A stretch of 64,000 bases of DNA. Source: a virus. Shown here in pieces: positions 2 to 53,675 of this stretch. Both the position numbers and the translations under genes were made by a program. Where the stretch lies: the IMG/VR virus record IMGVR_UViG_3300032896_000001, positions 32,001-96,000 of that record. One strand, given 5' to 3'. Positions within the stretch are counted from its first letter, which is position 1. Each line of letters opens with the position of its first letter. The notes under the pieces were generated by a model, which had not been told where the DNA came from, did no database searches, and saw only the letters and a list, made by a program, of their open reading frames with translations.

Positions 2-133
2 CTCGTGATCTCCGCCGCCCTGTTCGTGCTCGGCTCCCTCACGTTCGCGGGCGATCCCCTCGAGGCGATCCCGGCGTGGACGTGGATGAGCGGGGCGTTC
101 GCCGCCTGGGTCCTGTCCGGGGCAGCACCGTAA
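2..133 (+). CDS. 3' end of a small membrane protein (partial)
   Basis: Open frame LVISAALFVLGSLTF...WVLSGAAP ending TAA at 131-133; hydrophobic, high GC3. Confidence 0.6.
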   Translation, partial: LVISAALFVLGSLTFAGDPLEAIPAWTWMSGAFAAWVLSGAAP

Positions 134-478
134 CGCTCCCGCCGGAGCGGCCCTCGTCTCCCAGTGCCCGGCCCTCGCAGGCGAGAACGCGAACGTCGGC
201 CCCGCTTCGCCGTCAACGTAGACGACGACGCACCCCGGCAGCCGCCACGGCGCGGCCCTGACCGCTTCCTCAAAGCCGCCGAAGTCGAGGTAGTTGAAGC
301 AGGCCGCGTAGACGACGATGCTCGTCACCTTCCGGCCGCCCGCGCCCGCGTGCTCGAGGTCGGTCTTGCCGAGCTGCTGGGGACGCGGGTCGTTCTCCGC
401 CAGCCGGGCGTTGACGAACGCGACGGCCTCGTCCTCGCCGCCGATCGTCACGACCGCGACATCGGTAAGGAAGCTCAC
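131..478 (-). CDS. Hypothetical protein with no stop codon in the window; in-frame TTA at 133-131
   Basis: GTG 478 overlaps the stop of the upstream gene; VSFLTDVAVV...FNYLDFGGFEEAVRAAPW looks coding up to about position 140. Confidence 0.6.
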
Positions 479-831
479 GGCGCGGCCCACACTCCGGTCT
501 TGTAGTCGTAGGCCGGCTTGTCCGGGTGCCCGGCCCAGATGTCGGCCATGGTCTCGATCGCGACCGCAAGCGCGTGAATGTACCCGGCCTGCCTCGCTGT
601 TGTCTCCGGCGTCATCTCGGCGGCCCTGTAAGGCGCGTCGGCGTAGCTCACGATGGCCCGGTACCGGTCGACGAGCGACATCATCCACGTGACGTCGGGG
701 GCCGCCGCCGCGAGCTCGCCCGCCGTCGGGCTGCCGGGGACGGCCGCGTACCGCTCGTGCAGGCGGGCGCTGACGAACTCGATCACTGGCGTGATGTCGT
801 CGCGGATGACAGGCGCGGTCTCTTCGATCAT
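475..831 (-). CDS. DUF6221-like phage protein
   Basis: GGAGGAG RBS; IEFVSARL...MADIWAGHPD resembles paralogues at 2702 and 17522. Confidence 0.55.
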   Translation of the reverse strand: MIEETAPVIRDDITPVIEFVSARLHERYAAVPGSPTAGELAAAAPDVTWMMSLVDRYRAIVSYADAPYRAAEMTPETTARQAGYIHALAVAIETMADIWAGHPDKPAYDYKTGVWAAP

Positions 832-917
832 GGCTCCTCCAGGTGGCGGCCAGGCGGCGGGCATGTGCACGAGCAGGTAATCACGCCAGGCGGCGTAGGC
901 GAAGACGTCGTGCCCAC

Positions 918-1109
918 TCAGAAGATCACCTGGTGCTCGTACAGCCCGGTCCCGCCGCACGCCGGGTCGGGGTGCAACTCGCCGTCGCAGCGCGGGTCGC
1001 AGCACTGGATAGGGTCGTCGCACTCAACCCAGATCTCGCCTTCGCAGTGCGTGCAGCGCGGGTCGCTGTCGTCGCCGTCATACGGGTCGTTGTCGATGTC
1101 CTGCGTCAT
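918..1109 (-). CDS. Small Cys-rich (Zn-finger-like) protein
   Basis: CTHC...CCDPRC...ACGGTG; coupled overlap. Confidence 0.6.
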   Translation of the reverse strand: MTQDIDNDPYDGDDSDPRCTHCEGEIWVECDDPIQCCDPRCDGELHPDPACGGTGLYEHQVIF

Positions 1110-1279
1110 TCGGTGCCCCACTCGTACCACCAGGCTTCGGCGCAGTCATCGTGGCAGAACATGCGCCCGTCGTAGCCGACCTCCGGGTTAATGCTCCCGC
1201 ACCAGGCGCAGGTTTCGTCGTGGTCGTCGTCCAGGGTGTCGTCTGCGCCGAGGTAGTTCCCCCGGCCGGCCGCGCTCAC
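1106..1279 (-). CDS. Small acidic Cys-rich protein
   Basis: CAWC...FCHDDC; 4-bp overlaps. Confidence 0.55.
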   Translation of the reverse strand: MSAAGRGNYLGADDTLDDDHDETCAWCGSINPEVGYDGRMFCHDDCAEAWWYEWGTE

Positions 1280-1446
1280 GTTGCCGCCAGATCGTCCGGG
1301 CAGTCCGCGCACGGCTCGCTGCCGAGGATAAGCGGCTCGAAGTGGCACTTCCCGGCGCGGGACTCCCAGAACCAGCATGTTTCCCGGCTGTCGGGTACCG
1401 GCTCGTCGTCTACCTCGTCGTCAAGGGTGCTGTTGCTGTCGGTCAC
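1276..1446 (-). CDS. Small hypothetical protein
   Basis: GTGA overlaps on both sides. Confidence 0.5.
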   Translation of the reverse strand: MTDSNSTLDDEVDDEPVPDSRETCWFWESRAGKCHFEPLILGSEPCADCPDDLAAT

Positions 1447-52470: not shown

Positions 52471-52641
52471 GCTACCGAGCCCCTTCGCCAGTACAAGGGG
52501 GTCCGCGAAAAAATCTCGTGCAGTTGTCGCAGGTGACAACGCTGCGTGTTCGGCCGCCCAGGTAGCGGCTGCGCGTTCCGGGGCGTTCCCGTGCGCTCCG
52601 GGGTTCTCCGGGGCGATGTCGTCCCCAGATCGTCCCCAGAA
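52381..52641. other. Putative attP region
   Basis: Paired arm-type CCAGA repeats at 52381-52401 and 52621-52641; 10-bp phased repeats 52571-52620. Confidence 0.6.
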
Positions 52642-52656
52642 TTGGAGCGCACGCGC

Positions 52657-53091
52657 GTGACGCGAGTGACGACGAGCCGCGAGGTGCCCGCGTGCTGGAC
52701 ATGGCCGGCCCCGACGGCGGAGGCCCTGGAGAAGGTCCGCCGCCGGATGGTCGCCGACGCCGAGCAGGACGGCGTCGGCTGGCGCCCCAGCCCCCAGGAC
52801 GTCCGCTGGGAACTGATGGATCAGTGGAAGCGCGGCCGGTGCGCGATATGCGGCCGGCGCACAGGCAGGCTGATCGAGGATCATGATCACGAAACCGGGC
52901 TGTTCCGGGGCTGGCTATGCCGGGCCTGCAACACCTGCGAAGGGTATGCAGGGGACCGCGAGCCCTTCGCCGCGTACCGTGAGCGGAGCCCGGCCATCAT
53001 CTTTAACCTCAAGTCGCAGTACTCCAACCTCTACGCCTGGGGGTCCTCGACGAACGTCACGCCTCCCGCATCTTCTCCGGGTCAGCGATGA
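52657..53091 (+). CDS. Endonuclease VII-like protein
   Basis: CAICG..EDHDHETGLFRGWLCRACN. Confidence 0.8.
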   Translation: MTRVTTSREVPACWTWPAPTAEALEKVRRRMVADAEQDGVGWRPSPQDVRWELMDQWKRGRCAICGRRTGRLIEDHDHETGLFRGWLCRACNTCEGYAGDREPFAAYRERSPAIIFNLKSQYSNLYAWGSSTNVTPPASSPGQR

Positions 53092-53320
53092 ACGACCCCC
53101 CGTACGTCGAGTACTCGGCGGTCCAGTAGATCTGGACGACATTGCGCCCGCGGTCGTCGGTCCACCAGGCGCGGACGTCGACCGGGTGCCACTGCTTGTC
53201 GCCGAAGAGGAACTCCCACCCGGTCTCGCTCTCGTCCCGGTGCCAGCCGGTGTCACGGCGGGTCGTGTCGCGGGACAGCGCCACCTCGAGGGCGGGGGAG
53301 TTCCTCGGGCTCGGCGGCAT
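53057..53320 (-). CDS. Hypothetical protein
   Basis: Trp-rich, 87 aa. Confidence 0.6.
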   Translation of the reverse strand: MPPSPRNSPALEVALSRDTTRRDTGWHRDESETGWEFLFGDKQWHPVDVRAWWTDDRGRNVVQIYWTAEYSTYGGSFIADPEKMREA

Positions 53321-53330
53321 GAGAGTAGGT

Positions 53331-53675
53331 CTACCCAGCTAATTGCCAGCCGGTGACAGGTAATTGCGGTGCTGACGCCCGGACGACGCGCCTGGCAAGG
53401 GCGGCAAGCTGCGAGTCCCCGCGCCATGAGTCGTCACCCGGTTCCCACGGCTGCGTGTAGCCGCTGACCGGGGAGCCGGAGTGCGCGTGAACGCCGGGGC
53501 TGCAGATGTTGCGATCGGCCGGCACGCGCCAGCGGTCGCCCTGGTCGGTGTCCTCGTTGTGGCAGCACTCGATCAGGGGGCAGAGGCAGAGCAGGCCGAG
53601 GTGGCGGTCAACGCCTGTTGCGTCGCGGAACCGGCGGTTGTCGATCAGGTCCGACCAGCGATGATGCCCGCTCAC
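53331..53675 (-). CDS. Hypothetical protein
   Basis: GTGA overlap; two TTA codons in the last 10 codons. Confidence 0.55.
   Translation of the reverse strand: MSGHHRWSDLIDNRRFRDATGVDRHLGLLCLCPLIECCHNEDTDQGDRWRVPADRNICSPGVHAHSGSPVSGYTQPWEPGDDSWRGDSQLAALARRVVRASAPQLPVTGWQLAG

Follow-up and report, generated by a model that had tools for sequence, protein, structure and literature searches.

The leucine codon UUA differs by one base from both UAA and UGA, and in Micrococcus luteus it is reported to be unassigned, with no decoding transfer RNA (tRNA). In Streptomycetaceae, UUA is read by a single tRNA, that of bldA; vegetative Streptomyces has little functional tRNA that decodes UUA, and the codon makes ribosomes pause (PMC10732093). 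A stalled ribosome can be freed by rescue, drop-off, frameshifting or bypass (PMC10732093; PMC2635970), and tagging by transfer-messenger RNA (tmRNA) at rare codons is among the work cited in PMC2635970. For the terminase of phage phiHau3, UUA-triggered bypassing was proposed (Smith et al. 2013, as cited in PMC10732093), a case also treated by Antonov et al. 2023 (PMC10732093). Human eRF1 binds to UUA, a near-stop codon, where it stalls without peptide release (bioRxiv 10.1101/2024.09.01.610654). Published cases include bldA control, a bias of TTA to the 5' ends of genes (PMC10732093), the proposed bypass in phiHau3 and an upstream open reading frame (ORF) of adpA that has a UUA close to the 3' end; a full-text literature search returned no description of TTA replacing stop codons or of TAA/TTA triplets shared by two genes. 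Here we describe both situations in a 64,000-nucleotide stretch of viral DNA (the window), positions 32,001 to 96,000 of IMG/VR virus record IMGVR_UViG_3300032896_000001.

The record is a single contig of 105,095 bp with 71% GC, rated as a complete virus; it is the genome of a tailed phage, encodes tape-measure and capsid proteins, and has a phage-like gene layout. Four real genes (A, B, D and E), each with 16–31 homologues, have an in-frame TTA. TTA occurs at the position of the stop codon, the association is specific for TTA, and it recurs in independent lineages. With modest confidence, we favor the explanation that UUA serves as a surrogate stop on account of its very poor decoding during infection.

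TTA at the stop position

Genes were called with a home-made codon-score caller self-trained on the whole genome. The window contains 158 TTA trinucleotides over both strands, and yet the called genes of the whole genome (27,409 codons) had just two in-frame TTAs, at 30005 in gene D and 41341 in gene E. Genes A and B, each of which has a coding signal, initially escaped the caller on account of the long, strongly negative-scoring tails of their ORFs. An earlier note on this DNA, made by eye, had listed six in-frame TTA sites; the list proved complete and correct for the whole genome, although two of the six sit in a doubtful ORF (ORF C). No sense TTA was found within any gene body of the whole genome.

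Almost all of the 22 homologues of gene B (46–88% identity) end in ...VKPDCRC(R)(R), and the DNA of six relatives has TGA, TAA or TAG at the codon that is TTA in the window; AGG CGG TTA in the window corresponds to CGC CGA TGA in the closest relative, G001. The same triplet is the TAA of a strongly scoring convergent gene. None of the nine homologues of this gene differs in its last residue, and the stop is TAG, TAA or TGA, these three also being the stops used by relatives that have no collision. Genes A and B had both been described as leftward genes that lack a stop and meet TTA in register with the TAA of a convergent gene. We could confirm this, with antisense run-ons of 137 codons for A and 215 codons for B. 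Neither junction contained consensus promoters or terminators, and both ORFs do reach a stop, though a distant one.

In gene E, the TTA that follows PFLLQIV was also found as claimed, close to the end of the ORF. The orthologue in G001 (91% identical) ends ...PFLLQIV-TAG at the TTA codon, and the stops of five homologues coincide with it. Past this point the DNA of G001 is unrelated to that of the window, and therefore the stop position is also the exact site of a mosaic breakpoint. The segment just past gene E in the window (41359–41480) is unusually AT-rich and contains a GC-rich hairpin.

In the gene A family (31 homologues), the conserved core ends ...HWETR and most homologues stop 1–3 residues further on; the homologue in G008 has its stop one codon past the TTA position. 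The GTG start of gene A overlaps the TGA of the upstream gene, and the run-on ends 283 bases before the window start. Contig L011, an independent metagenome contig, carries identical junction DNA (GCG GGA GCG TTA CGG TGC TGC) on a gene A body that is just 83% identical and lies in a different gene background, and protein P0023 represents a third, diverged copy of the junction. Because L011 carries the same junction, site 1 is not an assembly error, which the earlier note had named as a way in which a real stop could have been lost. Contig L012 appears to hold the precursor: its gene A has a normal TGA plus a second in-frame TGA in GCG TGA CGG TG, followed by ~530 bp and then by CC TTA CGG CG, the antisense of the membrane-gene end. 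The window TTA aligns with the second TGA of L012, and site 1 likely arose by a ~530-bp deletion between the direct repeats TGACGG and TTACGG. A 6-bp hairpin (CGCTCC-cgcc-GGAGCG, 134–149) adjoins the triplet within the last six codons of gene A and is too weak to build on.

Homologues of gene D end 2–8 residues past a conserved ...LTPPK. In the window, four codons separate this K from the TTA, and none of the homologues has the 11 residues encoded beyond it. Thus, when aligned as the earlier note had suggested, homologues stop exactly at TTA for B and E and within 1–7 codons of it for A and D. Another family, coding for a 69-residue protein, has a normal TGA in the window, whereas its orthologues in G001 and G025 both have AGC TTA and run on for 104 and 64 codons, respectively.

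Recoding at UUA in the manner of the phiHau3 terminase, in which the ribosome would shift frame or bypass sequence to reach either a stop close by or a coding block further on, has a precedent in Streptomyces phages, in whose terminase genes UUA is followed by short non-coding blocks (PMC10732093). We consider it very unlikely here. For A, B, D and E alike, the homologues terminate at the TTA or close to it, hence there is no conserved continuation to rejoin, and what lies downstream is antisense or out-of-frame junk with strongly negative scores. A search for out-of-frame stops close after the TTAs, which would hint at frameshifting to a stop, found none nearby; the nearest ones past the TTAs of A and B are ~19–30 codons away or absent.

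Table 1. Coordinates of the genes, run-ons and shared triplets discussed in the text
Feature	Position in window	Strand	Description
Shared triplet, site 1	131–133	both	plus: TAA of small membrane-protein gene; minus: TTA of gene A
Gene A	134–478	-	115 codons, no stop of its own; coding signal; 31 homologues
Start of gene A run-on	1–130	-	antisense to two plus-strand genes; tail score -51
Small membrane-protein gene	5–133	+	converges on gene A; TAA stop; coding signal; homologues in L012 (93%) and L067 (57%)
Shared triplet, site 2	13860–13862	both	plus: TAA of gene 13215–13862; minus: TTA of gene B
Gene B	13863–14300	-	Cys-rich, 146 residues; ends ...VKPDCRCRR, then TTA in place of a stop
Gene B run-on	13212–13859	-	215 codons, in-register antisense; non-coding composition; score -114 to -137
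Convergent 215-residue gene	13215–13862	+	ends ...KLWYGIR-TAA; strong coding score
69-residue gene	24486–24695	+	normal TGA in window; TTA there in G001 and G025 orthologues
Gene D	29489–30043	+	TTA at 30005–30007, codon 173 of 184
Gene E	41020–41358	+	TTA at 41341–41343, codon 108 of 112
ORF C (doubtful)	53331–53720	-	129 codons; TTA at 53361–53363 (codon 120) and 53340–53342 (codon 127)

The coding signal of ORF C is weak and confined to 53380–53620, and the ORF had neither homologues in relatives nor family matches in Pfam or PHROGs. Searches of these two databases gave nothing useful for A, B, D or E either. Two additional in-frame TTAs with a positive local score, at 38534 (minus strand) and 49282 (plus strand), were discarded as parts of shadow ORFs opposite strong genes.

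Convergent genes that share a TAA/TTA triplet

If two convergent genes meet in register and one of them owns the stop, the other reads its reverse complement, that is, TTA, TCA or CTA. We found six in-register crossings followed by at least 40 junk codons, and in five of them the triplet was TAA/TTA (A, B, G005 59948, G009 105656 and G022 35447). The sixth, TGA/TCA at G022 75147, involves a gene without homologues. Since TAA accounts for only 28 of 310 convergent-end stops (9%), five out of six has P ~3e-5.

The crossings other than TTA comprise this TCA case and a short CTA case in the window (30916–30918), in which a weakly supported minus-strand ORF (30832–31341) crosses the TAG of the plus-strand gene 30388–30918 in register and runs on for 27 codons to a stop. 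Another kind of shared end is the palindrome TCATGA, on which two convergent genes of this genome overlap in register (G000 ~27824–27829, ~4.2 kb before the window), and which was also seen in G020 near 188.7 kb. Here each gene reads TCA and then its own TGA, so that two stops fit in six shared bases. As at the A and B junctions, tail-to-tail genes share their terminal bases; however, both genes of a TCATGA pair are truly stopped, whereas a TAA/TTA triplet stops one strand. At 131–133 and 13860–13862 the stop is on the plus strand alone.

Survey of related genomes

To place these loci in context, we analyzed 22 whole related genomes (2.3 Mb) in which genes were called with TTA scored as neutral. 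They contained 72 in-frame TTAs: 25 were aligned past by homologues, 15 were located at gene ends and 32 had no informative homologue. In 6 of the 15 gene-end cases, from five families, the stop of a homologue coincided exactly with the TTA (B, E, the 69-residue family in G001 and G025, G009 113193 and G024 29384), and in two others (A and G009 105656) it was within one codon. By a rough estimate, six exact matches out of 15 would occur by chance over ~21 nearby positions with a probability of ~4e-5. G009 113193 and G025 18290 are 95% identical, have homologous DNA downstream and differ by TGA vs TTA, a clean point change.

A second survey was independent of TTA and used orthologue pairs of at least 60% identity in which one member stops and the other continues. 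Extensions of 1–10 codons (30 events) began with 22 different codons, one of these TTA, and extensions of 11–39 codons were found twice. Eight extensions had at least 40 codons: four were junk tails that started with TTA (scores -33 to -109; three families), three were real coding sequence with positive scores, and one was a TCA inside two aligned junk tails. Thus, all four homologue-verified junk extensions of this length begin with TTA. An initial view that run-ons are exclusive to TTA had to be narrowed, in that the majority of the non-TTA "junk run-ons" flagged by codon score alone proved to be genuine coding sequence, through which homologues align, frameshifts in the large terminase (TerL) or assembly errors; the remaining ones have no homologues. 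In the large terminase, the first ~76 residues lie in a different frame from the rest of the gene in L035 (2–607), L051 (1342–1806) and G011 (44776–45375), with no TTA; a frameshift, an assembly error or an intervening element may account for this split.

It is possible, although we view it with some doubt, that the whole pattern is a neutral by-product: TTA would be read normally as leucine, would arise at gene ends, and the junk tails would be tolerated or degraded. Sources of such TTAs would be its distance of one mutation from TGA and TAA, relaxed and AT-richer 3' ends, and mosaic recombination or microhomology deletions that break at gene ends; the run-ons would follow because antisense in-register frames of genes with a high G+C content at third codon positions (GC3) lack stops, so that ORFs continue. 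Several observations agree with this. GC3, 0.91 in gene bodies, drops to 0.80 over the final five codons, many rare codons that end in A show a 2–4-fold enrichment in tails, and CTA, GTA and ATT have an absolute excess similar to that of TTA (6.5). With ~27% non-coding admixture in the last 25 codons (TTA frequency 0.0029), 7.7 tail TTAs are predicted and 9 were seen in four genomes. The idea that TTA alone is enriched in tails was tempered accordingly by the other A-ending rare codons and the admixture fit. In addition, the site 1 deletion is a process of this kind, tails of 25–30 residues without TTA exist in the gene A family, and among one-step stop-loss codons at identities of at least 75% TTA makes up 3 of 9 (P ~0.06). 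Short-tail TTAs, as in gene D and ORF C, need no special mechanism. However, a neutral origin leaves unexplained why TTA starts 4/4 homologue-verified long junk extensions, why TAA is found in 5/6 in-register collisions, and why TTA matches the homologue stop exactly in 6/15 end-class cases. The null explanation offered in the earlier note, that TTA survives only in unselected tails, therefore accounts for the number of short-tail TTAs but not for the exact coincidence with stops nor for TAA at collisions. Likewise, the TTA position distribution, which the note had proposed as a check, gave a tail TTA count within chance, whereas exact stop positions and shared TAA/TTA triplets were beyond it.

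The absence of sense TTA from gene bodies here, together with the lack of phage tRNA genes, might also indicate that UUA is unassigned, or a true stop, in a host without a decoding tRNA. This is highly improbable. The 25 TTAs aligned past by homologues lie in conserved regions of related phages and proviruses, so that the codon is present at conserved sense positions; the relatives are prophages of Streptomycetaceae, and Streptomycetaceae carry bldA. Only ~4 of 170 genes end at TTA, which is not a substantial share; the standard stops of the genome are TGA (119), TAG (22) and TAA (11). None of the 25 sense TTAs is in this genome; TTA inside conserved domains, named in the earlier note as evidence against its proposal, is thus absent here and present in some relatives, and TTA can therefore be at most a conditional barrier and not a reassigned stop. 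Provirus-type relatives show sense TTAs near the 5' ends of genes, aligned with Leu, which is the opposite of the pattern in the window (for example, G014 43287, codon 13; G018 17429–19821; G023 50622–52326; G010 9701, codon 280).

Host and decoding genes

No near relatives were found in a cultured-phage collection, either by megablast or by tblastn with A and B, and the closest cultured capsid relatives are Arthrobacter phages with only 40% identity. Capsids 57–91% identical occur in 56 uncultured viral contigs and in nine bacterial contigs, which belong to Streptomyces (four), Kitasatospora, Streptacidiphilus, a Streptosporangiaceae metagenome-assembled genome (MAG), an Amycolatopsis MAG and one unclassified Actinomycetota MAG. 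Related prophages were found within Streptomyces, Kitasatospora and Streptacidiphilus genomes. Because capsid-related prophages lie in such bacteria, the host is probably a member of Streptomycetaceae, and a bldA setting is therefore plausible. ARAGORN detected no tRNA or tmRNA genes in the window or the whole genome, and there was no match to Rfam families; a phage-borne UUA decoder or rescue RNA is thus unsupported. The genome also has no RF-1/ArfB or peptidyl-tRNA hydrolase domain.

A proposed surrogate stop and the points against it

Three signals are specific for TTA, namely its exact match with stop positions, the long junk tails and the preference for TAA at collisions, and a surrogate stop would be the simplest way to explain them. 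During phage gene expression, decoding of UUA would be so slow or rare that most ribosomes halt there, and poor decoding and stalling would lead to release of a protein of normal length. A change from stop to TTA would then be nearly silent even without a backup stop, whereas a change to another sense codon without a backup stop would be removed by selection, and a single TAA/TTA triplet could serve as the in-register meeting point of two convergent genes, without any spacer between them. The release route might be peptidyl-tRNA drop-off, ribosome rescue or release-factor misreading of the near-stop UUA; slow release by bacterial release factors at a hungry UUA is speculation. The earlier note had seen TTA as a bldA-dependent stall or pseudo-stop. 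TTA does occur where relatives have a real stop, and long run-ons are tied to TTA across the 22 genomes, as a pseudo-stop would predict; stalling, truncation, tmRNA tagging and bldA dependence belong to the inferred part of that proposal. An extended version is tentative: UUA may be a conditional terminator, gated by host development and exploited by Streptomycetaceae phages, such that scarce bldA tRNA gives the normal-length protein and abundant bldA tRNA a long junk tail.

Several points weigh against a surrogate stop. Its weakest link would be the release of a useful untagged protein, because tmRNA tagging would normally destroy such a product. UUA is mistranslated to some level in bldA mutants. 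The 25 sense TTAs in relatives are often aligned with Leu and often located at codons 5–65, matching the 5' bias of TTAs in Streptomyces genes (PMC10732093), and when bldA was deleted, Yang and Glover saw little increase in the number of tagged proteins (PMC2635970). Some junk tail is evidently tolerated, since a subgroup of the gene A family has an Arg-rich tail (...RLASRQPRRATRAQRRGGK) past the conserved end (L007 2501–2926; P0024, P0025, P0027, P0028, P0035, P0038, P0048 and P0051), which may overlie a conserved neighboring gene. The events are few, and some of them have a common origin (G001 and G025). The host is inferred, the relatives are all metagenome assemblies, as are all data used here, ORF C is weakly supported and the caller was home-made. 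The last three of these points would also speak for an artefact of assembly or sequencing errors or of miscalled genes, to which we give hardly any credence: the same junction occurs in independent contigs, and A, B, D and E are backed by their homologues. As a control, the error-prone MAG L091 (CAVSRT010000001.1) has ten genes in run-on frames within ~14 kb (128–14254), typical of assembly indel errors, and none of the ten has TTA.

If the surrogate-stop explanation is true, a sense codon would be a working gene end under the standard genetic code, its tRNA simply being withheld. This would be a new mode of bldA-based control in Streptomyces, phages would have a way to sense the developmental stage of the host through protein C-termini, and stop-less ORFs that callers extend or drop in high-GC phage genomes would be accounted for. 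Gene pairs that differ just by TGA vs TTA offer a natural test bed for ribosomes at hungry near-stop codons. Even if the pattern is neutral, it carries a warning for annotation, in that an ORF of these genomes that runs past a TTA near its expected end is probably not translated as written.

Comparison with known systems

Among the closest known systems is bldA control in Streptomyces, where in-frame TTA is likewise very rare, GC content is high and poor decoding is expected in young mycelium (PMC10732093, PMC2635970). However, in bldA-controlled host genes TTA is biased to the gene start and gates the whole protein (PMC10732093), whereas here it occurs at the stop position, when the protein is already complete. 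The phiHau3 terminase is likewise a Streptomyces phage ORF interrupted at UUA, for which a tRNA shortage was proposed to alter translation; there, only ~10 non-coding bases precede the return to coding sequence, and a single conserved protein is made from the parts, whereas here homologues end at the TTA and nothing conserved follows it. Stalling and rescue at rare or unassigned codons are similar in that a sense codon short of tRNA halts elongation and the ribosome needs rescue, but those cases represent quality control or codon loss, and here the codon is apparently tolerated, or used, as a normal gene end. Finally, human eRF1 also treats UUA in a stop-like manner and stalls on it; that system is eukaryotic, and no peptide was released in it.

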